Shown here piece by piece: positions 10,055 to 47,036 of a stretch of DNA of 64,000 nt. The position numbers and the translations under genes are program-made. The notes under the pieces were generated by a model that made no database searches, was not told the origin of the DNA, and saw nothing but the letters and a program-made list of their open reading frames with translations. Position 1 is the stretch's first letter; each line of letters opens with the position of its first letter. The stretch comes from Pseudomonadota bacterium (GTDB lineage: Bacteria; Pseudomonadota; Gammaproteobacteria; Steroidobacterales; Rariloculaceae), in contig JAYZFC010000002.1 of NCBI GenBank assembly GCA_036337035.1, positions 16,138 to 80,137 on the forward strand. The letters are read 5' to 3'.

Positions 10055-10143
10055 TGACCTAAATAAGTTCATAATTATCAATTTTTATTGCTATTTAATC
10101 CTAAATTATGATCAAATCTAATCATTAATATGGAGAGAAGACA

Positions 10144-11208
10144 ATGTCAAATAGAAGAGAATTTATAAAAAAAATCAGTCATCTTGCAATAGGATTAAAC
10201 CTTCTTGCAGTAAGTTTTAACTTAATAGCTCAGCCTGAAAGGCTAGAGGTTACTCTAAATGGCAGCCGCATAAAAACAATAGATATTCATGCTCACCTTG
10301 TTGTTCCAGAAGTTGCGGACCTTCTTACTAATACAGTATTTAGCGAGATATCATTTGCTCCTTGGCAAGCACTGAGCTCTGACAGAATAGACCTAATGGA
10401 TGAAAGAGGTATTGATGTCCAGGCTCTTTCAATCAATAGATATTGGTGGTATGCAGCTGAACGTGACCTTGCTAGTAGAATTGTAAAGTTACACGACGAA
10501 CATTTAGCAAACTGGGTTAATCAACACCCTAATAGATTTGTTGCACTAAGTTCAGTTGCTCTTCAATACCCTGACCTTGCTGCACAACAATTAGAGTATG
10601 CTATGAATGAACTTGGCCATAAAGGAGCTTCAATAGGAGGACATGTGCTAGGCTCAAATCTTGCTGATCCAAAGTATGATGTATTTTGGGCTAAAGCAGA
10701 AGAATTGCAAGCACCTATCTTTATGCACCCGGATGGAGCTAAAAATGTTATTAAAGAAGGAAGTCTTTCTGGAAGAGGAGAATTAAATAATATAATCGGT
10801 AACCCCCTTGAAACAACTATATTTCTCTCACAGTTAATTTATGGTGGTGTCTTTGATCGGTTCCCTAACTTAAAAGTAGTAGCAGCTCATGGAGGTGGAT
10901 ATATGCCCTCTTACCTTGGTAGATCTGAAGTGGCTTGCCAAGTTAGGCCAAATGCTGACTGCTTAAATGAAAAAAATCCTAGCGACTATCTCAAAGAACA
11001 AATTTTTGTTGATACTATAGTTTTTGATCATGAAGGGTTAAGACATTTAGTAGCGACTGTAGGCTCTAGTCAAGTAGTGTACGGAACTGACGCTCCTTTC
11101 AATTGGCCAGATAGTATTGATACAGTAATGACTTCACCATCATTAAGCGACAGTGAGAAAGAAGCTATATTAGGCGGCAATTTGGGCAGATTATTGAAAA
11201 TAAAATAA
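10144..11208 (+). CDS. Tat-exported amidohydrolase_2 family enzyme (paralogue of 4716..5834)
   Basis: 354 aa. Leader MSNRREFIKKISHLAIGLNLLAVSFNLIAQ. Blocks IDIHAHL, FMHPDG, AHGGGYMPSY, VYGTDAP. Long colinear identity runs with 4716..5834 (e.g. RFVALSSVALQYPDLAAQQLEY vs RFVALTSVALQFPELAAEQLEY). Confidence 0.75.
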   Translation: MSNRREFIKKISHLAIGLNLLAVSFNLIAQPERLEVTLNGSRIKTIDIHAHLVVPEVADLLTNTVFSEISFAPWQALSSDRIDLMDERGIDVQALSINRYWWYAAERDLASRIVKLHDEHLANWVNQHPNRFVALSSVALQYPDLAAQQLEYAMNELGHKGASIGGHVLGSNLADPKYDVFWAKAEELQAPIFMHPDGAKNVIKEGSLSGRGELNNIIGNPLETTIFLSQLIYGGVFDRFPNLKVVAAHGGGYMPSYLGRSEVACQVRPNADCLNEKNPSDYLKEQIFVDTIVFDHEGLRHLVATVGSSQVVYGTDAPFNWPDSIDTVMTSPSLSDSEKEAILGGNLGRLLKIK

Positions 11209-31567: not shown

Positions 31568-33772
31568 TTAATAACGAAAAGTCTTACTATATTTAATAGA
31601 AAACTGGGAATAAGTAGAATTAAATCTTGAAAAATTATCGAGTGTATTAGCGTTATGGTCAAAAACAAGGTAAAGATTTTCGCCAGCTTCTCGATTGAAT
31701 CTTAACCTTGTATTGAAACCTACATTAGATGATGTATTGTCATACTGTAATGAAGTATATAAATAAAGTCTATTTGTAAAATTATAGTTTGATGATATTT
31801 GAACTAATCGCGTTGTAAAATTACCATTGGGTAAATCAACATCATAGTTTTTTATACTACTAGATAAGAAAAACTTATTACTAGGTCTCCACCTAAGAGT
31901 TGCCTCTAAATCATTTCTTGTTCCATTATAGAATCCGCCTCCTTTTACAACTATCTTTGGAGAAAAGTTGCTGTTTTGAGAAAAGTCAGCTTCTATCTGC
32001 CACTCATCATAGCTGTGAGAACCAATTGGTACAATGACGCCTTTTGAAACCTCAAAAGGTTCAGTAAGAACTTCTGTAATTTTATTAAAAGCCACGCTGT
32101 AATTGTGACCAGATCTAGTAATTAATCTGATTGGTCTTATAAAACCATAATAACTTTCTAAATTACCAGTTTGGTCATTATTATGTGATTGAGTACTAAT
32201 AAACAACTCAGCACTTCTTATCCAAGGATGATTATCAAAATTCCTTCGATAACCACTCCACCACCTTACCCTTTTAAAGTCTTTTCGATTAACAAAGCCA
32301 AGAGCTGGGTTGTAGTTTTTTTCTACTACCTCATACTCAATTTTTCCTCTTATACCCTCTTCACCCTGAATTGCAAAGGTTACACCAAGTGTATCTTGAT
32401 CTTGATCTACTCCTGGAGTATCTGTTGCTGTGTACCATATATCCCCTTCAACCCTTTTAGAAGGATAAATAGATGTATTTCTATATCTAAAATCAAGTCC
32501 AGCTACTTTGTTATCTAAATTAGATCTTGGATTACCACTAGTAAATAATAACCCTATATTTGACTCATCTAAAACATTCGCCATAACTCTTGCTACAAAA
32601 AGATCTGACTTATCAAGTGATTGATGACTGTCTTGTTGAACACCAAGCACTCCAATGTTCAAACGGCCAGATCTACCCGTAAGCTTTAAACCTGAGTTGA
32701 TATCTATTGGCTGACCGGCAGCACTTAAACCAATTCTTCTTGTAAAAAAAGGATTTGCATTTCTATTCCACTGGTCATAATTGGCAAAGCTAAAAATATC
32801 CATATCTTGTAGAAAGAAGTTTCTTTTTTCAGGAAAAAAAAGTGAAAAACGGGTGAGATTAAGTTGTCGATCATCCACCTCAGTATCTGAAAAATCAGTA
32901 TTTAGCGTTAATACACCTGTCAATGTTGGATTAAACTTATAAAAAATATCTGCTGATGGCTCAACTGAACTTTCATTTTTGTTCTTAGCAAAATCCTTAT
33001 TTTGTTTTAAAGAAACAGAAGGAATAATATCTAATCCTAAACCTTGATTAATATCATTGAAGCCTTTAACAACACCAAAGCTATCTAAATTTGCATTGCG
33101 GTCAAATTCACTCCAAAAAACTCTCTCATTCTTTCGCCTAATTAATCTAACGAAATTAAAACCCCAATCAGGGTTACTAGGATCAAAATTGATAGATTTA
33201 AAAGGTATAGCTATTTCTGCAGACCAGCCCCATTCTGTTATTTGTGATTGAGCATACCAAATACCATTCCAGTTACTATTACCGGTAATTTTAGTGTCAA
33301 AAATGGATTCTTGTCTGGTACCTATTGCATTTAACCAAAAACTATAGCCAGAAGTCTTTTGATTAAAAGGATCAAGCCGAACACCTATGAGATCATCAGT
33401 AATAACGCCTGTATTGTGCGTCATTACTCTAGCAATAATTGCACTAGGATCAGAGTCTTCTAATCTAGCAGCAACATATAGAAAATCACTATCATAAGTA
33501 ACATAAAATGTAGTTTTTTCAGTTGGCTCTGATAAGTAAGCAGGGTCTACCTGAATAAAATCATCAATAATGGTTGCACTATTCCAAACATCATCGTCAA
33601 TAACACCATCAATAACTGGTGCAACCTCAGTTTTATAAATATTGGCTACCTTTAATGACTCATTTTGAGCAAAAACTGGTGAAATGAGAAAAAATAAAGT
33701 GGATAATTTAATTAATGTATTAAACTTAACAGCATAAAGTATATTTAAAAAATAACGGTGAATATGTTTCAT
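31568..33772 (-). CDS. Outer-membrane protein, CBM9-like N-terminal domain plus DUF5916-like beta-barrel (tentative)
   Basis: 734 aa. Signal ending SPVFA/Q. N-terminal VIDGVIDDDVWNSA block typical of CBM9-like modules. Alternating beta-strand pattern and C-terminal KYSKTFRY. Confidence 0.6.
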   Translation of the reverse strand: MKHIHRYFLNILYAVKFNTLIKLSTLFFLISPVFAQNESLKVANIYKTEVAPVIDGVIDDDVWNSATIIDDFIQVDPAYLSEPTEKTTFYVTYDSDFLYVAARLEDSDPSAIIARVMTHNTGVITDDLIGVRLDPFNQKTSGYSFWLNAIGTRQESIFDTKITGNSNWNGIWYAQSQITEWGWSAEIAIPFKSINFDPSNPDWGFNFVRLIRRKNERVFWSEFDRNANLDSFGVVKGFNDINQGLGLDIIPSVSLKQNKDFAKNKNESSVEPSADIFYKFNPTLTGVLTLNTDFSDTEVDDRQLNLTRFSLFFPEKRNFFLQDMDIFSFANYDQWNRNANPFFTRRIGLSAAGQPIDINSGLKLTGRSGRLNIGVLGVQQDSHQSLDKSDLFVARVMANVLDESNIGLLFTSGNPRSNLDNKVAGLDFRYRNTSIYPSKRVEGDIWYTATDTPGVDQDQDTLGVTFAIQGEEGIRGKIEYEVVEKNYNPALGFVNRKDFKRVRWWSGYRRNFDNHPWIRSAELFISTQSHNNDQTGNLESYYGFIRPIRLITRSGHNYSVAFNKITEVLTEPFEVSKGVIVPIGSHSYDEWQIEADFSQNSNFSPKIVVKGGGFYNGTRNDLEATLRWRPSNKFFLSSSIKNYDVDLPNGNFTTRLVQISSNYNFTNRLYLYTSLQYDNTSSNVGFNTRLRFNREAGENLYLVFDHNANTLDNFSRFNSTYSQFSIKYSKTFRY

Positions 33773-36700
33773 AAAAATAAAATAGTATATTTTGGTGTAA
33801 TTTCCTGCTTCATTTTATCAGGTTTTGCTGCGCTATTGTACCAAACTGCATGGATGAGGCAATTCTCTGTTATCTTTGGTACTTCAGAATTAGCTGTTGC
33901 AACTATTCTTTCAGCCTATATGGCAGGACTTGCTCTAGGCGCGGAAATTGCAGGTCGATATGTTGAAAAAATAAGAAGACCTATTTTATTCTATGGCATT
34001 CTTGAAGCAGCAATAGCTATCAGTGCACTATGCGTTCCATTCTTAATGGGCTTAGCAAGTTTATTATATATTAATTTTCTGGGTGATCAGCCAGCACCAG
34101 GTGATGCAAGCGGTCTTGGTCAATCAATATTTTATCTTGTAGTCGCTTTTTTAGTTCTAATTATTCCAACAGGCTGTATGGGTGCAACTCTACCTTTGCT
34201 AACAAAATATGTAGTAAGAAGTGAAGATCAAATTGGACCAAGAGTTGGCATGCTGTATGCCATGAACACGGCTGGAGCAATTGGCGGAACAACTACCGCT
34301 GGATTTTTATTGCTTCCTTTAATTGGCTTATCAGGAACAATATGGGTTGGTGTAGGAATTAATTTTTTAGTTTTTCTTATAGCAGCAGCAATTGCTAGAG
34401 AAATAAAAACGTCAACTGAAGAAAAAATTATAGAGCCAATAAAGAATAATACTAATAATATCTTTACTGATGCACCAAAATATAAGTGGATTTTACCTCT
34501 AATGTTGCTATCTGGCATGAATACTTTTACTTATGAAGTATTATGGACAAGATTATTAGGCCATATACTAGGAGGAAGCGTTGCTGCATTTTCAACTATG
34601 TTAGCCAGCTTCCTTTCAGGCATAGCAATTGGTAGCGCTATTGCATCTAGATTTTCAAAAATAAGAGAAAATTCGGTAAAAGTATTTATTTTTGTTCAAT
34701 GTGCTATAGCAATAACCTCTATCTTTGTTTATCAATACTTTGATTATCTTAATCCAGGTATGGGGCTTAATAGCAATATTATTATCGCATTTAGTATTTT
34801 AATGCCGGCTACTTTATTTATTGGGGCTACTTTTCCACTAGCTGTCAGAATGCTAGCTGACAATGAGAGAGTGGCAGCTCAAGCCTCTGCAAAGGTTTAT
34901 GCATGGAATACTTTTGGAGCCATCGCAGGTGCTGCAATAGCAGGGTTTTTCTTGATCCCATTACTTAAATATGAGGGCGCAATAAAGTTAGCAGTTAGTA
35001 TCAATTTATTTATTGCTCTACTTACTTCTCTTATTATTCTTAAAGAAAAAAGATTATTAACCTCATCTATAGGTTTTATTTTTCTAATTTCTTTATTTTT
35101 ATATAGACCAGATATGCCTGAAAATATTCTTAGAGCATCTTCAATTGTAGATAGAAGTGAAGGAGAAATTATCTATTATGATGTTGGCAGATCTGCTACG
35201 GTTATTGTTTTTGAAGAGGATGGTTTTTTAAACCTTAGAACAAATGGTTTGCCTGAAGCAGGTACTAATTTAAAAGGATCGCCACCATCAAAAAATAGTC
35301 AACAACTTCTAGCTACATTACCAGTATTAGCAAGACCTAATACATCTGAGATGTTAATAATTGGTTTTGGAGCTGGTGTTGCTGTTGAAGGTGTTCCATC
35401 TACTGTAAATAATATTGATGTTATTGAACTAGAGCCAAAGGTAATTGAGGCAAATAAAATTATTGGTAATAGCAGAGCCATAGACCCACTAAAAGATGAT
35501 CGTATAAATATTATCACTAATGATGCTAGAAGTGCCCTAGCTTTAACATCAAAAAAATATGATGCAATTGTTTCACAGCCCTCTCACCCTTGGACTGCAG
35601 GAGCGTCTCATCTATATACTCGTGAATTTATGAATTTAGCTAAAGATCATCTAAATCCAGATGGTATTTTTTTACAGTGGATGAATAGTCAATTCTTAAC
35701 TGAAGATCTCTTAAAGAGCCTTTGTGCAACTATGCTTGATGTTTATAGATTTGTAAGGGTGTATCAATGGGCACCTGAAGTTTTATTCTTTATAGGGTCA
35801 CAGCAGCCAATCAATCCTGAATATAATATGAGTATCACAGGAAGACCTGTGATAGATGATCCAGTTCATTATCTTGAAAGAGGAATAGGATCTGTGGAAG
35901 ACTTAGTAATAGCACTGAATATGGATCAAGAAAATATAAAAGAGTTTTCTAACGGGGCAAAGTTATTAACTGATAATATGAATCTTATGGCTACTGAATC
36001 TGGCCAAGCACAAGAAAGAGGAAAGGCTTTAAATTATAGAGATCTAGAAGATTTATTTTTACCCTATGACCCATTACTTCAAGATGAGAGCTTTCTTCAT
36101 AATAATTTTCCTATTGATCTAGAATTCTCCTATATTGCAGAAAGACTAGAAAACACTGGATTTAGGCAAAGAGCAATTACTTTAGGTAATGCTTTAGAAG
36201 CAAAAAATCTAAGTCAATCTTTGCTAGTAATTGCATTAGGTATGCAAAGACAAGGTCAAATAGAAGAATCTCAAAATCTACTAAGAAGATCATTAGAGGC
36301 AGATCCAACAAATGAACAAGCTCGCTTTAATATAGTTAAGCCATGGTTAGATAAAATAAATGATCCAGATACGCCAGATTATATAAAAGAAACTGCTAGT
36401 CAAATCAGAGGTTCAGCTGCAGCTGTTATAAAAGGATGGGAAGCTGTTTTACAAGAAAATTATAATTTATTGGTGGATTCAGATGAATTGATTGCAACTA
36501 CCAAAATAACTGACCAGTGGTATCTTGAATCAGTTAAGCTAAGAGCTGATTGGAGGATAAAAGTTAACAATCCTGAATACCAACCAGATCTTGCTAGAGA
36601 AGCAAGAAGAATCATTGATAATGCTATAGCAATTATTGATGATACAGAGCTTTATGGCTTAAGAATTTCAGCTGCTTATGTAGCTGAAGATATACCAGAA

Positions 36701-36943
36701 ATACTAGAGACTTCAAGAAGGTTAATTTATATTATCAACGGTGAAATTAATCTAGTAAAAGATGGCCTGTATAATATTACTACTGAAATAATTGATCGAA
36801 AAATTATTCAAATTGAAGCGCTTAAAATTGTTTTAAATGAAATGATAATAAATCAAGATGTTGATACATATGATATTGATAGCATAACGAATAATTTAGA
36901 TAATATTCTAGAAGAGCTTATAGATCTTAAGCTAATAGTTTAA
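33758..36943 (+). CDS. Fused polytopic-membrane / spermidine-synthase-like (class I SAM-fold) / TPR-like protein
   Basis: 1061 aa. N-terminal ~450 aa has many TM segments (SGFAALLYQTAWMRQFSVIFGTS). The middle has IGFGAGVAVEG, VIELEPKV, ITNDARSAL and SQPSHPW. The C-terminal ~350 aa is helical-repeat-like. GTG 33758 or ATG 33764 is the start. Confidence 0.7.
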   Translation: MNMFHKNKIVYFGVISCFILSGFAALLYQTAWMRQFSVIFGTSELAVATILSAYMAGLALGAEIAGRYVEKIRRPILFYGILEAAIAISALCVPFLMGLASLLYINFLGDQPAPGDASGLGQSIFYLVVAFLVLIIPTGCMGATLPLLTKYVVRSEDQIGPRVGMLYAMNTAGAIGGTTTAGFLLLPLIGLSGTIWVGVGINFLVFLIAAAIAREIKTSTEEKIIEPIKNNTNNIFTDAPKYKWILPLMLLSGMNTFTYEVLWTRLLGHILGGSVAAFSTMLASFLSGIAIGSAIASRFSKIRENSVKVFIFVQCAIAITSIFVYQYFDYLNPGMGLNSNIIIAFSILMPATLFIGATFPLAVRMLADNERVAAQASAKVYAWNTFGAIAGAAIAGFFLIPLLKYEGAIKLAVSINLFIALLTSLIILKEKRLLTSSIGFIFLISLFLYRPDMPENILRASSIVDRSEGEIIYYDVGRSATVIVFEEDGFLNLRTNGLPEAGTNLKGSPPSKNSQQLLATLPVLARPNTSEMLIIGFGAGVAVEGVPSTVNNIDVIELEPKVIEANKIIGNSRAIDPLKDDRINIITNDARSALALTSKKYDAIVSQPSHPWTAGASHLYTREFMNLAKDHLNPDGIFLQWMNSQFLTEDLLKSLCATMLDVYRFVRVYQWAPEVLFFIGSQQPINPEYNMSITGRPVIDDPVHYLERGIGSVEDLVIALNMDQENIKEFSNGAKLLTDNMNLMATESGQAQERGKALNYRDLEDLFLPYDPLLQDESFLHNNFPIDLEFSYIAERLENTGFRQRAITLGNALEAKNLSQSLLVIALGMQRQGQIEESQNLLRRSLEADPTNEQARFNIVKPWLDKINDPDTPDYIKETASQIRGSAAAVIKGWEAVLQENYNLLVDSDELIATTKITDQWYLESVKLRADWRIKVNNPEYQPDLAREARRIIDNAIAIIDDTELYGLRISAAYVAEDIPEILETSRRLIYIINGEINLVKDGLYNITTEIIDRKIIQIEALKIVLNEMIINQDVDTYDIDSITNNLDNILEELIDLKLIV

Positions 36944-39172
36944 ATGTTTTATAAAAAACAAGTCATTAAAGATCTACTGCTAATTGGCGGAGGTCACAGC
37001 CATATAAAAGTTATAAAATCTTTTGGCATGAATCCAATACCAGGCGTTAGATTAACTTTGATTAATCCTGATATGTATTCACTTTATTCAGGTATGTTGC
37101 CTGGTATTATTTCTGGACATTATAGTTTTGATGATGCTCATATAGATCTTATTAAATTAACAAGTTATTCAAATTGTAGGTTTATAAAAGGCAAAGTTAT
37201 AGGAATCCAGTCAGATAATAATAGAGTCATTATAGAAGGCCGGCCTCCTTTAACTTATGACCTTCTATCGATAAATTCAGGATCTAGTTCAAACTATAAA
37301 GAAATTGAAGATATTGATAGCATTGCAATACCAGTAAAACCAATTAATAGTTTTTTATCCCAATGGAAATATATTAAAAGCAAGATTAATAATTCAAAGA
37401 AAGATAGAAATATTGCAGTAATAGGAGGTGGAGCTGGAGGAGTAGAAATTATAACCGCAATGAGACATTCTTTAGGTGAAAAGAACAACCTAACTTTAAT
37501 TACAAAAGAAAATAAAATCCTTTCAGGTTTCCCAAAAAAAACAATTAATTATTTTGAGGATCACTTAAAAAAAAATAGCATTGAATTAATTAAAAATATA
37601 GAAGTAATAAAAATAACCAAAGGAAAGGTTATTAGTAAAAAAGAAGAAGAGTTTCTATTTGATGATATTTTTCTGGTAGCACAGACTGCTGGTCCTCAAT
37701 GGCTTAAGGAATCTAATTTAGACCTAAATGATGAAGGCTTCTTACTAGTTAATAATAAACTTCAATCATTAACAAAGGAAAATATTTTTGGATCAGGAGA
37801 TATTATAAAGTTTGATAAATATAATCTTAAGAAAGCAGGAGTCTATGCTGTAAGACAGGGCGATACATTAAATAAAAATATTAGAAACTTCTTTAAAAAA
37901 AGAAATTTAAATAAATACAAGCCACAAAAAAACTTTTTATCGATTATCACAATGGGGGGTAAGAATGCTGTTGTATCTAAATACTCTCTATCATTCAAAG
38001 GAAAATGGGTATGGCATTGGAAAAATTATATTGATAAGAATTTTATTTCCAAATTTACCAACCTTTCTCTTATTGAGATGAAAAGTGATGAAAAAATTCC
38101 AAAGATATTTCTTACTGAGGAGGTTAAAAAGCTAAATGATGATATGAGATGTGGCGGTTGCGGTGCTAAAGCTGCTAAAGAAATACTTAATTCAGCACTT
38201 GATGGCCTAAATATTAAAAAAAGGAATGATGTTGTGATAGGTCTCGATAATCCTGATGATGCCTCAATTATAAAAACACCAAAAGGAAAATTATCTACTA
38301 TTTCCTTAGATTTCTTTCCTCCTATGATCTCAGATCCATACTTATTTGGAAAAATAACTGCTCACCACTGTTTAAGTGATCTTTACGCAATGGGTGCTGA
38401 ACCTCAATCAGCCATGGCAATTGCTTGCCTTCCTTTGTGGCCAGAGCACAAGATCTCTGAAGAACTAAAATCTATGTTATTAGGATCTATAGAAATATTT
38501 AATGAAGAAAATACTCAATTAGTTGGAGGTCATACAAGTGAAGCAAATGAGTGTATATATGGCTTTTCTGTTACTGGTTTAATTGATAAAGATGAGATTT
38601 TAGCTAAATCTAAATTAAAGAAAGGGGATATTTTAGTTTTAACTAAAGCTATTGGAACTGGAACTATCCTTGCAGCTAATATGAGAGCAAAAGCAAAAGG
38701 GTTATGGGTTGATAAAGCAATAGAATCTATGTTGATCTCAAACAAAAAGTCAGTTGAAATAATTAAGAAATATGGTGGTACTGCTTGTACTGATATTACT
38801 GGCTTTGGTTTAATTGGTCACTTACTAGAAATGCTTGAAAAAAATCAACTAACAGCTAATATTAATCTTGAAAATATTCCAATATTAGATGGAGCAGATG
38901 AAACTATTTCTAAAAAAATTATCTCAACATTACAAGATAAGAATGAAAAATTTTCTAGATATATAAAAAATTGTTCTAAATTTAATAAATCACCAAATTA
39001 CAAATTACTTTTTGATCCACAAACAGCTGGTGGGATGTTAGCTGGAATTCCAAAAGATCATGTTGAAGACTGCTTAAACGATTTAACTAAAAATAACTAC
39101 ATAAATGCTAGAAAAATTGGAACCGTTGAAGAACAGACAAAAGTAAAAGAAAAAATATGTATTATAAAATAA
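36944..39172 (+). CDS. selD: Bifunctional FAD-dependent pyridine-nucleotide-disulfide-type oxidoreductase :: selenide, water dikinase
   Basis: 742 aa. N-terminal Rossmann motifs LLLIGGGHSH and IAVIGGGAGGVE. The C-terminal half has SelD motifs MRCGGCGAKA (Cys plus Lys), NPDDASII, SLDFFPP, LSDLYAMGA, VGGHTSE. ATG directly follows the TAA of the upstream gene. Confidence 0.85.
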   Translation: MFYKKQVIKDLLLIGGGHSHIKVIKSFGMNPIPGVRLTLINPDMYSLYSGMLPGIISGHYSFDDAHIDLIKLTSYSNCRFIKGKVIGIQSDNNRVIIEGRPPLTYDLLSINSGSSSNYKEIEDIDSIAIPVKPINSFLSQWKYIKSKINNSKKDRNIAVIGGGAGGVEIITAMRHSLGEKNNLTLITKENKILSGFPKKTINYFEDHLKKNSIELIKNIEVIKITKGKVISKKEEEFLFDDIFLVAQTAGPQWLKESNLDLNDEGFLLVNNKLQSLTKENIFGSGDIIKFDKYNLKKAGVYAVRQGDTLNKNIRNFFKKRNLNKYKPQKNFLSIITMGGKNAVVSKYSLSFKGKWVWHWKNYIDKNFISKFTNLSLIEMKSDEKIPKIFLTEEVKKLNDDMRCGGCGAKAAKEILNSALDGLNIKKRNDVVIGLDNPDDASIIKTPKGKLSTISLDFFPPMISDPYLFGKITAHHCLSDLYAMGAEPQSAMAIACLPLWPEHKISEELKSMLLGSIEIFNEENTQLVGGHTSEANECIYGFSVTGLIDKDEILAKSKLKKGDILVLTKAIGTGTILAANMRAKAKGLWVDKAIESMLISNKKSVEIIKKYGGTACTDITGFGLIGHLLEMLEKNQLTANINLENIPILDGADETISKKIISTLQDKNEKFSRYIKNCSKFNKSPNYKLLFDPQTAGGMLAGIPKDHVEDCLNDLTKNNYINARKIGTVEEQTKVKEKICIIK

Positions 39173-39232: not shown

Positions 39233-41845
39233 CTAATCAAAGTACCGTTGGTATCTAACAAAAGACTCGCTTGGTCTATTCAGATTAACAGCTGCATTAC
39301 CATTACCAGTAGAAAAAGAGCCATTAGAAGAATAAACTTCATTCGTAGCATTTCTAATACCAAAGGTAAGTGACCAATCTTCAGCCGCGCTGTTATATGT
39401 AGTGTTAAAGTTAACAACCCTATAAGCATCTTCTCTCATTAACATATGAGGTTCAAACTTAAATCTTTGAGCATCCATATACATATAATCAAGTCGAGAA
39501 GTAATATTACCACCTGAAACTAAAGGAATACGATGAGTTATACCAAACGTATAATTATTTTCAGGAGCGTAAGGAAGTACTGCTTCTGAAAGTGGAATAC
39601 ATGTCGTAGTAGGACAATTAGTCTTTGATACTAATGGTGTTGAAAGAGTGCTATCTGTATAACCCGGAGCATACCACAGGTATGTACCTGATTGCATAGC
39701 ATTACCAGCTAGCGAATCAATCTTTGCATCTAATAGGCCGACAGTAGCATCAACACGAAGAGTATCACTCACAATCCATAATGCCTCTAATTCGGCACCA
39801 GTTAGAATACCCTTACCAACATTCTCAATACCAGTTCCCCCACTTGCTAATCCTGCTGGTCTAGCGTTGACCTGCATATCATCGTAGGTAGAATTAAATA
39901 TCGCACCATTTAATCTTAAAGCACCGCCAAATAAATCAGCTTTAGCTCCAATCTCATAATTTGTTACGTATTCAGGTCTGAAAGCTGGCATAGGTTGAGG
40001 CATCCCTTCAGGGAAACGACTAGCAAAACCACCATCACGGAACCCTTTAGCAAAAGAGCCATAGATCATAGCAGTATCACTAATATCATAAACTAAGCTC
40101 AACATAGGATCGGTTTGCGTCCATTCAGCTGTACCCACTGCTTCTTCACAAATATCAGTAACCTTATCTCTTTCAATCCTTCCATCTCCATTTGAAGTTG
40201 GACCACCTGCTGGTTGAGGATTGTTTGCATTTGCAGGGCAATAGTCCCTATGAATAGTTACATCAAATGTTTTCTTATCAGTAGTTGTTCTAAGTCCGCC
40301 AGTTAAGTGAAGCCTATCTGAAATATGATAGGTTAACTGAGTAAAAAGAGCATTAGAGGTATTATCGATGTCTCGGGCAATACGCTGGAATTTTAAACCG
40401 CCCACTCCATCGTGCACTGCGTTCATACCACTAGCTCCAGTATAAACAGTACCTGGATGATAGCTCGTGTTTTGCTTACGGCCTTGAACCACCCACAAGC
40501 CATTTACACCAATTAATGATACGACCTCAGTACCTGTTTCTTTAAACAGATATGCACCAGCTGTGTAATCCAACCTGCCATCCATTGCTTGGCCAGTCAA
40601 CTGGAACTCTTGAGATCTTCCATCTTGGTGGAAATCATCATTAATATTAGAAAATATTGGGAGTGGGCTATAATCATGATCATTCATAAAGCTTGATTTA
40701 AAGCCACGATAAGCTGTAATCGACCTTAATGTACCATATGCAGTCTCTGTTTCTACTGTTAAGGCGCTGCCATAGGTAGTTAACCAATTTTCAGGTGTAT
40801 AATCCACATTACCATTCACATCATAATAAATGGCACCTGTTTCATAAACATCTACACCAGGATTATTTGCTTCACCATAACAAAGTTTGTTTGTGTTTCT
40901 TCCCTCTGCTGTTGCACAAGCTGCAACTCCTGAAAAAGATGCGCCGCCCATAGGTGTTGAAACATTCCACCAGTTACCTTGCATCAAGACAGAAACAAAT
41001 TCGCCTGTCGTAGTACCATCAGCACTATAAAGCGCTGCTGGAACTAAAGGAGCTGGGGCCGCCTTATTATGAGACCAATCTCCAGTAAGATTAACTCTTA
41101 AACTATCTGAAGGAGAAAATTCTAACTGGGCACGAACTGCCGAAGTATTATCATCGCCTAACCAAAGATTATCATAACTAGTAGCCTTAACATAACCGCC
41201 TCTAGTTCTTTGCATGATAGAAACCCTGGCTGCTAAGTCATCTACGGCTTCTATAGGTAGATTAAATGAAGCTCTAAGATTGCTATAACTGTTTTCACCA
41301 AATGAAATACTCACTTTTGATTCATAAGCGTCAGGATTAGGTCTTTTAGTCACTAAGTTAACTGCTCCAGCTAAAGTGTTCCTTCCAAAAAGCGTTCCCT
41401 GCGGGCCTCTTAAAACCTCTGCTCTTTCTAAATCAACAAGATCCATCATGCTTCCAATTGATCTAGCAACATAAACGCCATCAATGTAGATACCTACTGC
41501 TGGATCAGTGTTAATTACAAAATCTGATTGTCCAACACCACGCATAAAAATAGTTGGTGAAGCTGTTAGTCCACTTGTTTGCGATGCTGCCTCAATCATA
41601 ACATTTGGTGTTGCCTGTGCTAAATCATTAACATTCAACGCACCACGAAGATCAATCTCATCCTCTGTAAAAGCAGTAACTGCTATTGGAGTATCTTGAA
41701 GTGACTCTTCTCTTCTTCTAGCAGTAACCACTATCTCCTCAATTGCAAAAGCACCTCCCGTAGCTTGGGCAGATGCTTTATCGAAAGAAAAAAATAGTGG
41801 AAACAATACAACAGAAAAAAGAGCTGTATATCTCTTATAATTCAC
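39233..41845 (-). CDS. TonB-dependent outer-membrane receptor
   Basis: 870 aa. GTG start with AGGAGA 5 nt upstream. Signal ending DKASA/Q. Plug blocks EEIVVTARRREESLQDTPIAVTAF and VEVLRGPQGTLFGRNTLAGAVN. Long barrel. Confidence 0.9.
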   Translation of the reverse strand: MNYKRYTALFSVVLFPLFFSFDKASAQATGGAFAIEEIVVTARRREESLQDTPIAVTAFTEDEIDLRGALNVNDLAQATPNVMIEAASQTSGLTASPTIFMRGVGQSDFVINTDPAVGIYIDGVYVARSIGSMMDLVDLERAEVLRGPQGTLFGRNTLAGAVNLVTKRPNPDAYESKVSISFGENSYSNLRASFNLPIEAVDDLAARVSIMQRTRGGYVKATSYDNLWLGDDNTSAVRAQLEFSPSDSLRVNLTGDWSHNKAAPAPLVPAALYSADGTTTGEFVSVLMQGNWWNVSTPMGGASFSGVAACATAEGRNTNKLCYGEANNPGVDVYETGAIYYDVNGNVDYTPENWLTTYGSALTVETETAYGTLRSITAYRGFKSSFMNDHDYSPLPIFSNINDDFHQDGRSQEFQLTGQAMDGRLDYTAGAYLFKETGTEVVSLIGVNGLWVVQGRKQNTSYHPGTVYTGASGMNAVHDGVGGLKFQRIARDIDNTSNALFTQLTYHISDRLHLTGGLRTTTDKKTFDVTIHRDYCPANANNPQPAGGPTSNGDGRIERDKVTDICEEAVGTAEWTQTDPMLSLVYDISDTAMIYGSFAKGFRDGGFASRFPEGMPQPMPAFRPEYVTNYEIGAKADLFGGALRLNGAIFNSTYDDMQVNARPAGLASGGTGIENVGKGILTGAELEALWIVSDTLRVDATVGLLDAKIDSLAGNAMQSGTYLWYAPGYTDSTLSTPLVSKTNCPTTTCIPLSEAVLPYAPENNYTFGITHRIPLVSGGNITSRLDYMYMDAQRFKFEPHMLMREDAYRVVNFNTTYNSAAEDWSLTFGIRNATNEVYSSNGSFSTGNGNAAVNLNRPSESFVRYQRYFD

Positions 41846-41951: not shown

Positions 41952-42045
41952 TGGCGGAGGTGGATGGGAATCGAACCCACCACCCGATATTATTCAAGTC
42001 ACTGGTTTTGAAGACCAGGAGAGTCACCAGACTCCATTCACCTCC
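41952..42045 (-). tRNA. selC: tRNA-Sec (anticodon UCA)
   Basis: Minus-strand read: GGAGGTGAATGGAGTCTGGTGACTCTCCTGGTCTTCAAAACCAGTGACTTGAATAATATCGGGTGGTGGGTTCGATTCCCATCCACCTCCGCCA. 6-bp D-stem (GGAGTC/GACTCT) with a 4-nt loop. Anticodon arm CTGGT-CTTCAAA-ACCAG gives UCA. Long variable arm. 94 nt, 13 nt downstream of selB. Confidence 0.9.
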
Positions 42046-42058
42046 TCATTTTTAAAAA

Positions 42059-43594
42059 TTAAAACTTATTTTTGAGCCTTCTATAATCACCAAATCTTTC
42101 TGTTATACCAGTAGCGTCAAAATGCTCCATTATTGGTATCACTGATTTTCTAGAACTCGCTAATAAGTCCCTAACTTGAGAAATAGTAAATTTATCAGGA
42201 TATGGAAATTCTTGCTCTATAATTTTCTTTACTTTGTCTAAATTAATTCTATGAGTTAGATATTTTATTCTTCTATCATAAAGCTTTAAAGACACTAGCT
42301 TTCCTTGTTTTAGTAGCAAGCGATTCATTTGTTTGGCTATTTCGCTACCATCCAAAATATTCTCTTCAGATTCAATATTGTACTCAAGAGAAAGATATTT
42401 CTCTTCAATATTCTTAATCACTTCTAATTGATCTTTATCTAAATTAATATCTAATATGTCTTTTTTAGAGTGGTTTATTTTTTTTCTTGGTGTTAATACT
42501 TCTTTCTTAAAATCTTGTGTATCTATAATCTTAGTTATCTCACCTCCACCTATTGTTTTAGAAGGAGAAAATGATCTTATTACAAATTTTTCATGTTCAT
42601 GAGTTACAACAGGTGTATTGAAGAAAAACTTTACTAATGCTTCTTCACCTTGACTCAAAATATTTTTTTTACTTATTTTTATTCTAGCTGAAACATCTAA
42701 AGTACCAACTAGAACATGAACAATAGAATTATTTTTTAATCTACATGAGGGCCTTTCTAATATCTTAATCTTAGCTTCAAATGCTATAGTCTTCTTTAAA
42801 AAATTTTGTGAAGAAACGACATTGCCTCTATTTAAATTACTTATCTTTATCCCCCTAAGGTTAATTGCAACTCTTTGTCCTTTTTCTGCCTGAGGTACTT
42901 CCTTGTTATTAACATGAATACTTCTAATTGACAGCTTTTCTTCCTGTGGAAGTAAAATAACTTCACTCTTATTATCTAAATTTCCATGTCTTAAAGTACC
43001 AGTAACAATCGTTCCAAAACCCTGCTTGTGAAAAACTCTATCTATTGGAAGAAAAAAATTACTTTCAATGATTTCTTTTTTTTCAAAACTAGCGGCATCT
43101 TTAACAAGCAAGCCCTTTAAAGCATCTATTCCAGATCTGCTAATAGAAGATACTTCATGTAAATTGAAATTTTTTAAGAAAGTATCTTTCAAAAAGTTCT
43201 TAATTTTTTCTCGCTCTTTAATAATTTCATTTTTTGACAATAAATCTATTTTAGTTAAGACAACTATGCCTTTATTAATCCCTAGAACAGAAGCAATATC
43301 AAGATGTTCTATAGTTTGTGGCATGATTCCTTCATTCACTGCAATTACTAATAAAATACTACTAATCCCAGATGCCCCAGAAACCATATTTTTTATAAAA
43401 GATTCATGGCCAGGCAAATCAATTAAGTCTATAAATGTATTATTAGAATGAATATAAGCAAAGCCTGGAACAATAGAAAGCCCCCTTTCATGTTCTTCTT
43501 TTAAAAGATCTGTATCTATCCCAGTTAATGCTTTAACTAATGATGTCTTACCATGATCAACGTGGCCAAGCACACCAATTGACATATGTTTCAT
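42059..43594 (-). CDS. selB: Selenocysteine-specific translation elongation factor (short form)
   Basis: 511 aa. G-domain GHVDHGKTSL, DLPGHESF, TKID. EF-Tu-like domains II/III end near SPSKTIGGGEI (about residue 350), leaving only ~150 C-terminal residues. ATG shares one nt with the selA TGA. Confidence 0.85.
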   Translation of the reverse strand: MKHMSIGVLGHVDHGKTSLVKALTGIDTDLLKEEHERGLSIVPGFAYIHSNNTFIDLIDLPGHESFIKNMVSGASGISSILLVIAVNEGIMPQTIEHLDIASVLGINKGIVVLTKIDLLSKNEIIKEREKIKNFLKDTFLKNFNLHEVSSISRSGIDALKGLLVKDAASFEKKEIIESNFFLPIDRVFHKQGFGTIVTGTLRHGNLDNKSEVILLPQEEKLSIRSIHVNNKEVPQAEKGQRVAINLRGIKISNLNRGNVVSSQNFLKKTIAFEAKIKILERPSCRLKNNSIVHVLVGTLDVSARIKISKKNILSQGEEALVKFFFNTPVVTHEHEKFVIRSFSPSKTIGGGEITKIIDTQDFKKEVLTPRKKINHSKKDILDINLDKDQLEVIKNIEEKYLSLEYNIESEENILDGSEIAKQMNRLLLKQGKLVSLKLYDRRIKYLTHRINLDKVKKIIEQEFPYPDKFTISQVRDLLASSRKSVIPIMEHFDATGITERFGDYRRLKNKF

Positions 43595-44982
43595 CAGGAA
43601 AATATTTTCTCTAAAGCCTTGTATATATCTTGTACTTGATCCTCTCTTACTGCCCTAAGGTCAATATAAACAAAACCTGAATTAATCCTTGAAATAATTG
43701 GCGGCTCTGAATCTCTTAGCTGCTTAGCTAAATTATTAGCAGAAATTTTTAATGGCTCAAGCTTGATAACTGGTGAGGGTATTTTATTATTGGGTAGCGT
43801 ACCTCCACCAGAATAACTAAATCCATCTTCTATATAGTGTTTAATATTTTTTATATTCTTCAAAAGATCTGAAAGAAGGACTATTCTTTCTCTAACTTTA
43901 TCCTGATCTTCACAAATCATTCTTAAAGTTGGAATATCTTTTTTTGGATTATATGGGGGGAAATAAAGCCTTAAGGTCTCTGCCAGAGCAGCTAAACTCA
44001 GCTTATCAATCCTAAGAGCTCTAAGTAGAGGATTTTTTTTAATTAATGCTATTAGCTCTGCTCTACCCACCAAGATGCCAGATTGAGGGCCTCCTAATAA
44101 TTTATCCCCGCTAAAGCTAATTAAATCAACCCCTGCTTCTATACTTTTATGGATTGATGAACTAAGTCTAATATCATCATTAGAAAGTTCAACCAATGAG
44201 CCACATCCTAAATCTTCAATTGTTATTATTTCCTTATTGTGAGCTAGACTCGTAATTTCTTTAATATCAGGCTTAGAGGTGTGGCCATATAATTTATAAT
44301 TACTAGGATGAACAACTAAAATTGCCTTTGATCTTTCAGTTAATGCAGTCCTATAGTCACTAAGAGCAGTAATATTAGTTGTACCAACTTCTATCATATT
44401 AGCGCCACTTTGCTTAATGACATCAGGCATACGAAATGAGTCACCAATTTCAACTAACTCGCCTCTAGATATAACCACTTCTTGATCTTTAGCAAAAGAA
44501 TTTATCGCTAACATAAATGCTGCGGCACAATTATTTACAACAATTGCTGCCTCTGCTCCAGTTAGTTTAGTTATTAAAGACTCAACATGTTTATACCTTG
44601 AAGAGCGCTCACCTTTATCTAAACTATATTCTAAATTAGAATAGTTTCTAGCAACCTTATTCATCTCTAAAATCGCTTGATCTGCTAGGCACGCCCTACC
44701 CAGATTTGTATGCAAAATAACTCCTGTTGCATTTATTACCGGCCTAAAGCTTTTCTTTCTTTTATCTAATAATTCATCACGCAATCTATTTAAATAGTCT
44801 TGGTTATCAAAAATGGGCAAATAATATGAGCCTTCTTTAACTAATTTTCTGTAATGAGATAAATGGCTCCTCATAACATCAGCTACCTCAGAGTGAGAAA
44901 ATTCATTAGATAATCTCTTTCCTATATCTGAACTCAACCAGCTATCAATCGATGGAATTTTTCTCAAAAGTTCTTTAATCAT
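43594..44982 (-). CDS. selA: L-seryl-tRNA(Sec) selenium transferase
   Basis: 462 aa. The PLP-lysine block FSGDKLLGGPQSGI is typical of SelA. ATG overlaps the TGA of the upstream membrane-protein gene (ATGA at 44979-44982). Confidence 0.9.
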   Translation of the reverse strand: MIKELLRKIPSIDSWLSSDIGKRLSNEFSHSEVADVMRSHLSHYRKLVKEGSYYLPIFDNQDYLNRLRDELLDKRKKSFRPVINATGVILHTNLGRACLADQAILEMNKVARNYSNLEYSLDKGERSSRYKHVESLITKLTGAEAAIVVNNCAAAFMLAINSFAKDQEVVISRGELVEIGDSFRMPDVIKQSGANMIEVGTTNITALSDYRTALTERSKAILVVHPSNYKLYGHTSKPDIKEITSLAHNKEIITIEDLGCGSLVELSNDDIRLSSSIHKSIEAGVDLISFSGDKLLGGPQSGILVGRAELIALIKKNPLLRALRIDKLSLAALAETLRLYFPPYNPKKDIPTLRMICEDQDKVRERIVLLSDLLKNIKNIKHYIEDGFSYSGGGTLPNNKIPSPVIKLEPLKISANNLAKQLRDSEPPIISRINSGFVYIDLRAVREDQVQDIYKALEKIFS

Positions 44983-45704
44983 TGTTTCGACTTTCTATCA
45001 TATAAGAAAAATGGAAGATAAATTAAAAAAAAGATACCAATACCTATAATAATGTAAAAAGGGATCTGGTAAGGAGGATTAGGCATAAAATTAGTTATAT
45101 TAGTCCCTCCTGGTAAATCTATTAAATACCAATAATTAGCTGGATTACCAGGTGCAAAAAAATTAATAGTCAAATTAATAATGTAAATAAAAATAACCAT
45201 GGCTAAACTAATTGGTATTACTTTTAATAATGATTGAAAGTTAGGGCGCATTTTAAAAACTATTGCGGAATAAGAAATGCCCAACCACATAAGCCAATGT
45301 CCAAAAAAGAATAATATAAATTGAATATCAGGAAATCCTAAAATTATATCTGGTTGAGTATTTGCCATCAAACCGCCTGAAATTCCCCAAAAAAAAGCAA
45401 TTTCAAAGAAAATCTTTCTTTTAGTTAATAAAAAAATAGCAATAGTAAATGAAGAGAAGTGGCAAAGATGCAAAGGCAACATATTGAGTATTGAAAAAGA
45501 CTCAGGCCATAAAAAAGGATAGTAGATCGGCTTTGCTAGTTCATTAAGAATAAGTAAGCAGGCTAATAAATTACCAAGACTATTTTTTAATTTATCGTTA
45601 TAAGGCAATAGGAGCCAAGGAAATAGCAAAACTGATATAAATATCAATGCCAATACAGTTAAATGGTCAAAACCAAATATTTGAAATGGAGCAATTGTTT
45701 TCAT
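44979..45704 (-). CDS. Polytopic membrane protein of unknown function, first gene of the selA-selB-selC string (YwaF/TIGR02206-like, tentative)
   Basis: 241 aa with about 7 hydrophobic segments. N-terminal FGFDHLTVLALIF, internal LPLHLCHFSSF. Translationally coupled to selA. Confidence 0.5.
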   Translation of the reverse strand: MKTIAPFQIFGFDHLTVLALIFISVLLFPWLLLPYNDKLKNSLGNLLACLLILNELAKPIYYPFLWPESFSILNMLPLHLCHFSSFTIAIFLLTKRKIFFEIAFFWGISGGLMANTQPDIILGFPDIQFILFFFGHWLMWLGISYSAIVFKMRPNFQSLLKVIPISLAMVIFIYIINLTINFFAPGNPANYWYLIDLPGGTNITNFMPNPPYQIPFYIIIGIGIFFLIYLPFFLYDRKSKQ

Positions 45705-45842: not shown

Positions 45843-47036
45843 ATGGCTAATAAAAAAGTTATCGATTACAAAAGCGGTCGGCATTTTTTACAGGTTCCAG
45901 GGCCAACTAATGTGCCTGACAGAATTATCCAAGCAATAGCTAAACCAACAATAGATCATAGGGGGCCAGCTTTCTCAGAGCTTGTTCTTAATATAATTCC
46001 CAGACTAAAAAAAATATTTAATACAGATTCACCAATAATGATTTACCCAAGTTCTGCAACTGGTAGTTGGGAATCAAGTATCGTCAATACTCTAAGCCCT
46101 AAAGATAAAATTATGATGTTTGATAGTGGTGATTTTGCTCTTAAATGGAAAATTGTTGCTGAAAGATTTGGTCTAGAGATTATTTATGTACCTTGTAATT
46201 GGAGAGAGGGTATAGACCCAAATGTGATTGAAGAACTGCTCAAAAAAGATACAAAACAAGAAATTAAATCAGTAATGGTTGTTCATAATGAAACATCAAC
46301 TGGGGTTGCCAATTCAATGAAAGAGATTAGGGAAGCAATCAACCAATCGAGGCATCCAGCATTGCTAATGGTTGATGCTGTTTCTTCGGCTTTCTCAATC
46401 GAGTATCTTCAAGATGAATGGGATGTAGATGTAACAATTGCTGGATCTCAAAAAGGACTAATGTTGCCCCCTGGTTTATCATTTAATGTAGTAAGTGAAA
46501 AAGCTCTTAATGCTCATAAAAAAGCAAGCTTGCCAAAAAGCTACTGGAATTGGTCAGATGTGTTACCTTCAAACGAAACTGGATTTTATCCATACACCCC
46601 AGCTACAACTTTACTTTTTGGCTTAAAAGAAGCTCTCATTATGATAGAGGAAGAAGGTATGGAAAATATCTATAAACGACATTATCATCATTCTCAAGCA
46701 ACTCAAAAAGCAGTAAAAGCATGGGGATTAGAAAATCATTGTTCAATTCCTAAAAAAAGTAGTCACACGGTAACCACAGTAAAAATACCAGAAAACTATA
46801 GTGCTAATAATCTTCGTTCAGTAATTCTTGAAGAATTTGATATGTCATTAGGAACTGGTCTTGGAAAATTAATAGATAAAGTATTTAGAATAGGTCATTT
46901 AGGTAGCTTTAATGATCTAATGCTCTTAGGTACTCTTTCAGGAGTTGAAATGGGGCTTGAGCTAGCCAATGTTCCACATAATAAAGGGGGCGTTCAAGCT
47001 GCAATGAGTTATTTAATATCTAATAAAAATAATTAA
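45843..47036 (+). CDS. Class V PLP-dependent aminotransferase (serine-glyoxylate / alanine-glyoxylate type)
   Basis: 397 aa. N-terminal VPGPTNVPDRI, HNETSTGV, and the PLP-lysine block AGSQKGLMLPPGLSF. Confidence 0.8.
   Translation: MANKKVIDYKSGRHFLQVPGPTNVPDRIIQAIAKPTIDHRGPAFSELVLNIIPRLKKIFNTDSPIMIYPSSATGSWESSIVNTLSPKDKIMMFDSGDFALKWKIVAERFGLEIIYVPCNWREGIDPNVIEELLKKDTKQEIKSVMVVHNETSTGVANSMKEIREAINQSRHPALLMVDAVSSAFSIEYLQDEWDVDVTIAGSQKGLMLPPGLSFNVVSEKALNAHKKASLPKSYWNWSDVLPSNETGFYPYTPATTLLFGLKEALIMIEEEGMENIYKRHYHHSQATQKAVKAWGLENHCSIPKKSSHTVTTVKIPENYSANNLRSVILEEFDMSLGTGLGKLIDKVFRIGHLGSFNDLMLLGTLSGVEMGLELANVPHNKGGVQAAMSYLISNKNN

Follow-up and report, generated by a model that had tools for sequence, protein, structure and literature searches.

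Introduction

Integral-membrane lipid enzymes of the superfamily that includes TMEM164 and YwaF share a proposed 6-helix core in which a "variable nucleophile, invariant His" pair is carried by core helices 2 and 4 (bioRxiv 10.1101/2022.07.06.498872). One member, human TMEM164, is a transacylase that acts from C20:4 phosphatidylcholine on lyso-ether-phospholipid and makes lipids prone to peroxidation in the context of ferroptosis, and proteins named YwaF are present in B. subtilis and S. pneumoniae (bioRxiv 10.1101/2022.07.06.498872). AIG1/ADTRP and LhaT/YpjA are likewise lipid-directed hydrolases or transferases (bioRxiv 10.1101/2022.07.06.498872; PMC12345273). In the literature that we searched on YwaF, TIGR02206, and PF14808 we found no experimentally characterized bacterial member, and neither those searches nor searches on SAR86 with selenocysteine returned a report of a link to selenium.

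Here, we analyze a gene for such a protein that lies directly upstream of selA in the window, that is, the whole 64,000-nt stretch of DNA under study. The first-pass annotation of this DNA described the product as an unknown polytopic membrane protein, translationally coupled to selA, and offered two readings of it: a candidate component of selenium import or handling, or a hitch-hiker in a compact genome.

A TMEM164/YwaF Protein Is Encoded at the Head of the sel Genes

The features of the locus are as follows.

45843..47036, plus strand: class-V aminotransferase (PF00266), divergently transcribed
44979..45704, minus strand: membrane-protein gene (TMEM164/YwaF, TIGR02206), 241 aa, predicted catalytic pair Cys81/His136
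44979..44982, minus strand: ATGA junction of the membrane-ORF stop and the selA start, read from the sequence
43594..44982, minus strand: selA, L-seryl-tRNA(Sec) selenium transferase, 462 aa (TIGR00474, 529 bits, cut-off 267.9)
42059..43594, minus strand: selB, Sec-specific elongation factor (TIGR00475, 290.9 bits, cut-off 242.25)
41952..42045, minus strand: selC, tRNA-Sec with anticodon TCA (ARAGORN; Rfam RF01852, 79.5 bits)
36944..39172, plus strand: pyridine-nucleotide-disulfide oxidoreductase–SelD fusion, 742 aa (Pfam Pyr_redox_2, AIRS, and AIRS_C)

The gene geometry given in the first-pass annotation was confirmed throughout, from the 241-aa ORF with its approximately seven transmembrane segments to the spacing of the sel genes. 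The end of the membrane ORF (AAA CAA TGA) overlaps the beginning of selA (ATG ATT) by 4 nt, the end of selA (TCC TGA) shares 1 nt with the start of selB (ATG AAA), an overlap that is kept in the relatives L001 and L068, and 13 nt separate the selB stop from tRNA-Sec. The selA product also matches PF03841 (E 1.1e-130 in Pfam). SelB is short, at 511 aa; compared with the 639-aa SelB of L077, its winged-helix region lacks about 125 aa. The oxidoreductase–SelD fusion, which scores 429 bits with TIGR03169 (cut-off 310) and 281 bits with the selD model TIGR00476 (cut-off 125), means that the window contains every gene of the Sec-trait set. The divergent aminotransferase is 68% identical to the aminotransferase that adjoins selA in L069, and L072 and L077 have the same arrangement of aminotransferase and selA-selB; because it is a companion of selA-selB in distant relatives too, this gene shows where the sel block originally ended.

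The membrane protein itself can be named. It matches the Pfam model PF14808 (TMEM164) with an E value of 5.8e-30 and 104.9 bits (cut-off 25) over residues 10–229, corresponding to profile positions 2–217 of 217, and it scores 117.5 bits (curated cut-off 75) over positions 2–218 of 222 with TIGR02206, the NCBIfam model entitled "TMEM164-related integral membrane acyltransferase". No other family in Pfam or NCBIfam was matched at E ≤ 0.01. By these profiles, the protein belongs clearly to the TMEM164/YwaF family, and the description "unknown" does not hold; the family is in turn part of the "ATGY" superfamily (AIG1/TMEM164/GPC1/YwaF/YpjA), whose members are integral-membrane lipid enzymes. Clustering at 50% identity divides the family into at least 5322 clusters, and distant matches carry the database names "YwaF family protein" and "TIGR02206 family membrane protein".

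Conservation points to the same assignment at the level of single residues. Among 278 family members that are 22–92% identical to the window protein, the position of His136 is occupied by His in all 278 and that of Cys81 by Cys in 276, the other two having Ser, and the pair is also invariant in our homolog alignment A1. An AlphaFold2 model (pLDDT 76, pTM 0.77) has seven long helices, with Cys81 at the start of helix 80–94 and His136 inside helix 127–149. If helix 12–31 is taken as an N-terminal extra, these two would become core helices 2 and 4, and the conserved pair would then match the predicted nucleophile/His pair of the superfamily. No structure of this fold was found in the PDB: a Foldseek search with the model returned only unrelated helical proteins (best E 0.78), and the profile of alignment A1 matched no PDB sequence at E ≤ 1.

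By analogy with human TMEM164, we infer that the window protein is an acyltransferase with a lipid substrate. Cys81 would take an acyl chain as a thioester from a donor lipid or acyl-CoA, with His136 acting as the general base, and a lyso-lipid or some other acceptor in the membrane would then receive the chain, resulting in remodeling of membrane lipids.

Homologs Occur in an Acyl-CoA Context, and the Adjacency to selA Is Derived

The window derives from a gammaproteobacterium of the marine SAR86 cluster. To place the gene among its relatives, we collected 56 homolog loci from genomes of the SAR86 cluster or of unclassified marine Gammaproteobacteria; the sample is confined to SAR86-type genomes because the search was built from only the 11 closest sequences. 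Just one of these 56 loci, that of the closest relative, TMED78, has selA or selB within 10 kb, and the same is true of none of the four homolog loci outside SAR86. In these loci, the enrichment of homologs beside sel genes that the first-pass annotation had proposed to look for was not seen: homologs are common and show no such association, and a recurrent link with sel genes across lineages, as would be expected of accessory genes of the Sec trait, was not observed. What recurs instead is a different neighborhood. About 34 loci share the gene order SDR, enoyl-CoA hydratase, acyl-CoA synthetase, SDR, [homolog], acyl-CoA synthetase, and in about 11 paralog loci a PF01553 (PlsC-type) acyltransferase gene starts anywhere from 55 nt ahead of the stop of the homolog to 5 nt past it. 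In four paralog loci, an Mpo1-like cluster, annotated from paralog locus L065, lies directly upstream. As genomic context, the acyl-CoA synthetase and PlsC-type neighbors of the SAR86 homologs support the predicted acyltransferase activity. The possibility that L073, a YwaF locus, and L077, a selA locus, adjoin each other in one genome was considered and rejected, since the two share only a paralogous DUF6152 stretch.

The reverse question, what adjoins selA elsewhere, was addressed by single look-ups of selA loci. No TMEM164 homolog lies beside selA in four distinct non-SAR86 selA neighborhoods, and in the nearest selA loci outside SAR86 a deiodinase-like selenoprotein gene is found upstream of selA, in the place of the membrane gene. 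A metagenome scan with selA gave a single locus, L068. Homologs are present in at least 55 SAR86-type species, and an AT-rich composition like that of such genomes was found in only 2 of the best 120 selA matches, which indirectly suggests that sel genes may be missing elsewhere in SAR86.

In a neighbor-joining tree, a simple distance tree from one 241-aa protein, the window protein and that of TMED78 group together in all 100 bootstrap replicates, and in 95 of the 100 their clade is nested within the group of orthologs with acyl-CoA context. Because the tree puts the window gene inside the acyl-CoA-context orthologs, the adjacency to selA is derived, a recent rearrangement in one small SAR86 branch. 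About 10 kb on either side of the locus is collinear between the window and TMED78; since the whole region is collinear, retention of the adjacency adds no signal beyond general synteny.

We consider it very probable, given these neighborhoods, the nested tree position, and the deletion described below, that the gene encodes a TMEM164/YwaF lipid enzyme whose link to selenium is positional only, a hitch-hiker, so that the fallback reading of the first-pass annotation is the one supported. The SAR86 ortholog usually resides among fatty-acid and acyl-CoA genes; in the small branch of the window and TMED78 it would have come between the class-V aminotransferase gene and selA-selB-selC; and in the window genome alone, a deletion, an instance of ordinary genome streamlining, then took out the spacer.

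The ATGA Overlap Is Private to One Genome

That deletion can be read from the alignment with L068, whose membrane protein is 92% identical and which has a 12-nt spacer before selA: a 19-nt gap falls exactly at the junction of the membrane ORF and selA. In TMED78 (76% identical), the spacer is 11 nt. The ATGA overlap is therefore present only in the window genome, where it was created by the 19-nt deletion. Nor is such an overlap out of the ordinary: of the 33 same-strand pairs of neighboring ORFs in the window, 9 overlap (5 by exactly 4 nt) and 22 are no more than 20 nt apart; in 12 other loci the ortholog overlaps an unrelated 151-aa ORF by the same 4 nt. The tight coupling had been read as a sign of functional linkage, and this reading is not borne out. 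An overlap of stop and start codons says little about functional linkage when a genome is streamlined; here the deletion arose within the divergence of relatives with 92% identical proteins.

One point weighs against a purely positional link. In each of the three known carriers (the window, L068, and TMED78), the membrane gene points the same way as selA and lies close against it, and a scan between the two genes found no terminator-like site; for these reasons, the membrane gene and selA-selB probably share a transcript, and some co-regulation is conceivable. In a further reading, the membrane ORF would supply promoter and ribosomes to selA and set the output of SelA without any shared function. 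The ATGA overlap leaves no room for an independent ribosome-binding site, and the 138-nt gap 5′ of the membrane ORF is the sole sizeable intergenic space before selA. Against this, L068 and TMED78 manage with their spacers, and promoter-like matches are no commoner than in shuffled sequence (17 found, 19.6 expected), so that a promoter is not located. As the main explanation of the arrangement, regulatory or structural coupling is unlikely, and it would follow from the hitch-hiker scenario more than compete with it.

Possible Links to Selenium

An indirect link would exist if selenoproteins and the lipid products of the acyltransferase served one process, for example, the control or repair of oxidized membrane lipids, and the enzyme had joined the sel operon of this branch for that reason. 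The probable co-transcription in three genomes is in keeping with this idea, as is a loose parallel to the relation of TMEM164 and GPX4 in human ferroptosis, where the selenoprotein GPX4 counters peroxidation of the lipids that TMEM164 makes. We regard it as very unlikely. Only one shallow branch, with a collinear neighborhood, has the adjacency, the spacer varies freely among the three carrier genomes, and the data indicate no peroxide-related partner. A search of the window for genes with an in-frame TGA gave only antisense or trivial cases and no selenoprotein gene. The ORFs at 33758–36943 and 36944–39172, which are in the same frame, were considered as one TGA-split selenoprotein, an idea that was rejected, as the stop between them is TAA.

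The proposal of a membrane protein that imports or handles selenium, stoichiometric with SelA and hence translationally coupled to it, fares no better. It draws on the position of the gene, directly upstream of selA and co-oriented in the window, L068, and TMED78, on the clustering of all four Sec-trait genes nearby, and on the polytopic nature of the protein. Yet none of the 55 other SAR86-type and none of the four non-SAR86 homolog loci is near sel genes, the coupling overlap is missing from L068 and TMED78, and selA loci of other Gammaproteobacteria are without the gene. Family members also occur in organisms that lack the Sec trait, which to our knowledge include B. subtilis and S. pneumoniae. 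Judged by the neighborhood test, the proposal is largely refuted, and we give it hardly any credence. Equally improbable is that the selA-selB-selC operon of this SAR86 sub-branch acquired the acyltransferase to serve a function, with lipid remodeling and selenoprotein synthesis under joint regulation (e.g., in a bacterial defense against lipid peroxides in which a membrane transacylase is paired with a selenoenzyme), or that the protein acylates or handles a selenium-carrying membrane compound.

For selenium biology, the positional reading that we prefer has little consequence other than to remove the false lead of a missing selenium transporter. The conserved SAR86 neighborhoods, with acyl-CoA synthetase, SDR, and enoyl-CoA hydratase genes in one case and a PlsC-type partner in the other, provide context for the wider family.

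Comparison with Known Systems

With selenium-associated transporters of the YedE and DedA types, some of which adjoin sel genes, the window protein has in common only its polytopic inner-membrane nature; with PF14808 as its only Pfam match and TIGR02206 as its only NCBIfam match at E ≤ 0.01, it has no sequence relation to them, and no association with the Sec trait was found at the homolog loci. AIG1/ADTRP hydrolases and LhaT/YpjA (DUF1405) share with it the same proposed 6-helix core and nucleophile/His pair; they differ in belonging to other Pfam families, none matched by the window protein at E ≤ 0.01, and in having Thr or another nucleophile.

Human TMEM164 is in the same Pfam family, and its Cys nucleophile and invariant His occupy putatively equivalent places in core helices 2 and 4, an equivalence drawn from conservation and helix position. 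The window protein is shorter (241 aa). We know of no arachidonoyl ether lipids from marine gammaproteobacteria, and its substrates must therefore differ from those of the human enzyme. With the TIGR02206/YwaF family, including B. subtilis YwaF and T. pallidum TP0381, it shares a length of about 240 aa, a multi-helix topology, the LPLHLC motif, and the invariant His. The sole difference from that family seen in the window gene is its placement beside selA in one branch.

A TMEM164-related gene at the head of the selA-selB-selC string

The membrane ORF that leads the sel string had been described in the first-pass annotation as an unknown polytopic protein; however, its 241-aa product matches PF14808 (TMEM164) over profile positions 2-217 of 217 (E 5.8e-30, Pfam search) and, with 117.5 bits, exceeds the cut-off (75) of NCBIfam TIGR02206, "TMEM164-related integral membrane acyltransferase". 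No further family in Pfam or NCBIfam was matched at an E value of 0.01. When 1.84 billion proteins were searched with a profile built from the window protein plus its homologues, 5322 clusters (representatives at 50% identity) matched at E ≤ 0.001, and the distant named matches are labelled "YwaF family protein" or "TIGR02206 family membrane protein". The genes of the string and those around it are as follows.

Features of the sel region in the window
36944-39172, plus strand: pyridine-nucleotide-disulfide oxidoreductase-SelD fusion, 742 aa (TIGR03169, "N-terminal to SelD", and TIGR00476)
39233-41845, minus strand: TonB-dependent receptor, between tRNA-Sec and selD
41952..42045, minus strand: tRNA-Sec (ARAGORN and Rfam)
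42059..43594, minus strand: selB, 511 aa (TIGR00475, 290.9 bits, cut-off 242.25)
43594..44982, minus strand: selA, 462 aa (TIGR00474, 529 bits, cut-off 267.9)
44979..45704, minus strand: membrane ORF, 241 aa (ORF call)
45843-47036, plus strand: class-V aminotransferase

The geometry reported at first pass agrees with the sequence. On the coding strand the membrane ORF ends AAA CAA TGA and the ATG ATT of selA starts inside it (a 4-nt ATGA overlap), selA ends TCC TGA with the last A opening the ATG AAA of selB (a 1-nt overlap), and tRNA-Sec follows selB by 13 nt. Both downstream genes exceed their NCBIfam cut-offs and are genuine selA and selB, and the approximately seven transmembrane segments correspond to seven long helices in an AlphaFold2 model (pLDDT 76, pTM 0.77). 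Given the position of the SelD fusion, selD, selC, selB, and selA therefore all lie inside 8 kb. The upstream gene, for a fused MFS/spermidine-synthase-like protein, ends in a TAA that the ATG of the SelD fusion directly abuts, and the two genes share one frame.

SelB is short in the window, with 511 aa versus 633-639 aa in its nearest non-SAR86 relatives: approximately 150 residues of the winged-helix region (residues 363-512 in L077, a selA locus outside SAR86) are represented by only 27, and the last winged helix (PF09107) is retained. The short form is shared by TMED78 (509 aa) and L068 (513 aa), two relatives described below. The TonB-dependent receptor also has an orthologue after tRNA-Sec in TMED78 (68% identity), and L068 has an 871-aa ORF in the same place; the window protein is not a selenoprotein-type TonB receptor as modeled in NCBIfam (45 bits vs a cut-off of 825).

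Homologues are rarely encoded near sel genes

The closest named homologue of the window protein (76% identity) is from Gammaproteobacteria bacterium TMED78 (locus L001), and the next (42-56%) are from SAR86-cluster single-cell and metagenome-assembled genomes; the G+C content of the window is 30-40%. The window therefore derives from a streamlined marine gammaproteobacterium of the SAR86 type. We sampled 56 loci together with their 10-kb flanks, taking one genome per GTDB species; as the search patterns were built on close homologues, the sample covers only SAR86-type genomes. The first-pass annotation had proposed association of homologues with sel genes as a check on its reading, and such association is almost absent from this sample. 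In tBLASTn searches with the window SelA and SelB, both were found near the homologue only in TMED78, whereas the other 55 loci had neither within 10 kb, giving only weak 33% GTPase-domain matches to another GTPase. Four further homologues, more remote and from GC-rich Gammaproteobacteria, likewise had no sel genes nearby. For two of these, the longest contig with the homologue equals in length (4,388,645 and 4,161,092 bp) the longest contig with a selA match, suggesting that their genomes decode Sec; the contig retrieved for one such selA match (P0126) was another, of 1.09 Mb, and had no overlap with the homologue locus.

Clustering of neighboring ORFs and annotation of representatives defined three contexts. 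In the first (approximately 34 loci, homologues 42-56% identical), a short-chain dehydrogenase, an enoyl-CoA hydratase, an AMP-binding acyl-CoA synthetase, a second short-chain dehydrogenase, and a small antisense ORF precede the homologue, which is followed by variable inserts, a second acyl-CoA synthetase, and then DSBA-like, PALP, and Cys/Met-metabolism enzymes. In the second (approximately nine loci), the homologue has Hsp20 and DsbD on its upstream side, with MscS and a CitMHS transporter on its downstream side. In the third (approximately 11 loci), the gene after the homologue encodes an acyltransferase of the PlsC type (PF01553), with a start anywhere from 55 nt ahead of the homologue stop to 5 nt past it, and in four loci an Mpo1-like (2-hydroxy fatty acid dioxygenase) cluster, annotated from L065, lies directly upstream. 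The first and third contexts are lipid or acyl-CoA settings and fit an acyltransferase.

The antisense ORF (conserved, approximately 121-127 aa, no Pfam match) lies just upstream of the orthologue in L013-L046 (about 9640-10023, minus strand) and overlaps its start by 23-42 nt in approximately 25 of the 28 loci that have it.

The adjacency to selA and the overlap are derived

In a neighbor-joining distance tree of 53 full-length homologues (a short protein; 100 bootstrap replicates), the window and TMED78 proteins form a clade in 100 replicates; 95 replicates place this clade inside the orthologue group of the first context, and 73 make it the sister of a single SAR86 subgroup. Therefore, the window gene is the usual SAR86 orthologue at a novel location, and its adjacency to selA is derived. 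TMED78 is collinear with the window throughout the stretch examined (TctABC, GFO/IDH oxidoreductase, TPR protein, class-V aminotransferase, homologue, selA, selB, tRNA-Sec, and TonB-dependent receptor), and the adjacency kept in both tells nothing beyond their close kinship.

Tight coupling had been taken as a sign of functional linkage; the overlap is, however, private to one genome. In L068, the locus of a 92% relative, the homologue ends in TAA with a 12-nt spacer before the selA ATG, the spacer in TMED78 is 11 nt, and alignment with L068 places a 19-nt gap in the window exactly at this junction; thus, the ATGA overlap is a recent deletion. The overlap of selA with selB, in contrast, persists in every relative (1 nt in TMED78 and L068; 4 nt in L069, L071, and L072, which are non-SAR86 loci). 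Overlaps are also frequent across the window, where nine of 33 same-strand neighbor pairs overlap, five of them by 4 nt (e.g., oxidoreductase/TctA), and the SAR86 orthologue itself shares 4 nt at its stop with an unrelated 151-aa ORF, without a Pfam match, in 12 loci. Overlap here is a feature of the genome and is not specific to the membrane ORF and selA.

A different gene precedes selA in other genomes

Among 5.8 billion proteins, the best selA matches are the cluster that contains the window SelA (100%) and TMED78 (71%), followed by matches of at most 55%. Of the best 120, only the top two have an AT-rich amino-acid composition (FYMINK/GARP 1.4-1.6; third-ranked match 0.93, median 0.5), indirectly suggesting that sel genes may be absent from other SAR86 genomes. 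In the non-SAR86 contexts covered (L069-L072 and L077; G+C 57-62%), a divergent class-V aminotransferase, 68% identical to that of the window, again lies ahead of selA-selB-tRNA-Sec, and L077 also has a GntP permease that shares 78% identity with its TMED78 counterpart. Another gene occupies the place upstream of selA in three of four neighborhoods (L069/L070, L072, and L077); in the fourth, L071, the contig ends 132 nt upstream of selA. This gene encodes a secreted thioredoxin-fold protein with a frame broken by TGA in G-C-L/F-T-TGA-P-P-F, and is a deiodinase-like CxxU selenoprotein gene that gene callers split in two (ORFs of 79-86 aa, or 48 aa in L072, and 285-297 aa). An opposite-strand NYN-domain gene separates it from selA in L077, and the window has no homologue of it.

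Deiodinase-like selenoprotein gene (TGA-interrupted frame) and class-V aminotransferase in other loci
L069, 4677-5837: selenoprotein gene
L070, 4677-5837: selenoprotein gene
L072, about 4742-5815: selenoprotein gene
L077, 2319-3500: selenoprotein gene
L001, 7283-9855: aminotransferase, GntP permease beside it
L077, 1-2193: aminotransferase, GntP permease beside it
L069, 423-1607: aminotransferase

Because the same block occurs elsewhere with another gene upstream of selA, the aminotransferase-to-selC block predates the arrival of the TMEM164 homologue in it.

The aminotransferase thus lies divergently beside selA-selB-selC in genomes of 32% and approximately 60% G+C. Its identity and that of GntP exceed those of SelA (50-53%) and SelB (44%), which might be explained by joint transfer of the whole block or by a genuine link to the Sec genes.

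Function of the membrane protein

We consider it quite likely that a TMEM164/YwaF-type membrane acyltransferase has come by rearrangement to lead the sel string, where it is probably co-transcribed and has no specific selenium role. The first-pass proposal of a selenium import or handling component retains a very small probability, as does an indirect functional link, mainly since the membrane ORF and the sel genes are probably expressed together: no terminator-like site was found between them, although a promoter scan performed no better than chance. The family of the protein and the scarcity of sel genes around its sampled homologues argue against such a component, and the fallback that the gene is a hitch-hiker is supported by the derived adjacency and the private deletion.

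Human TMEM164 acts as a transacylase that depends on Cys123 (Reed et al., bioRxiv 10.1101/2022.07.06.498872). The superfamily defined in that paper comprises AIG1, TMEM164, GPC1, YwaF, and YpjA and shares a six-helix core, in which helix 2 bears a nucleophile that can be Cys, Ser, or Thr and helix 4 bears a His that does not vary. Across 278 aligned family members (22-92% identity to the window protein), the residue at C81 is Cys in 276 and Ser in two, H136 is His in all, and H79 is less conserved (237). C81 opens helix 80-94 of the AlphaFold2 model and H136 lies within helix 127-149; if the first helix is set aside as an N-terminal addition, the pair would fall on the second and fourth helices of the core. 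Neither a sequence-profile search nor Foldseek with the model found this fold in the PDB. Conservation and helix position, rather than direct alignment, suggest that C81 and H136 are equivalent to human C123 and H181. The window protein is predicted to carry out acyl transfer on a lipid substrate. A SAR86 paralogue group with a 206-aa PF01553 partner (L052-L055, L057-L060, L065, and L067; about 10001-11100) resembles, together with that partner, a lipid-remodelling gene pair and may offer a handle on the function of the family.
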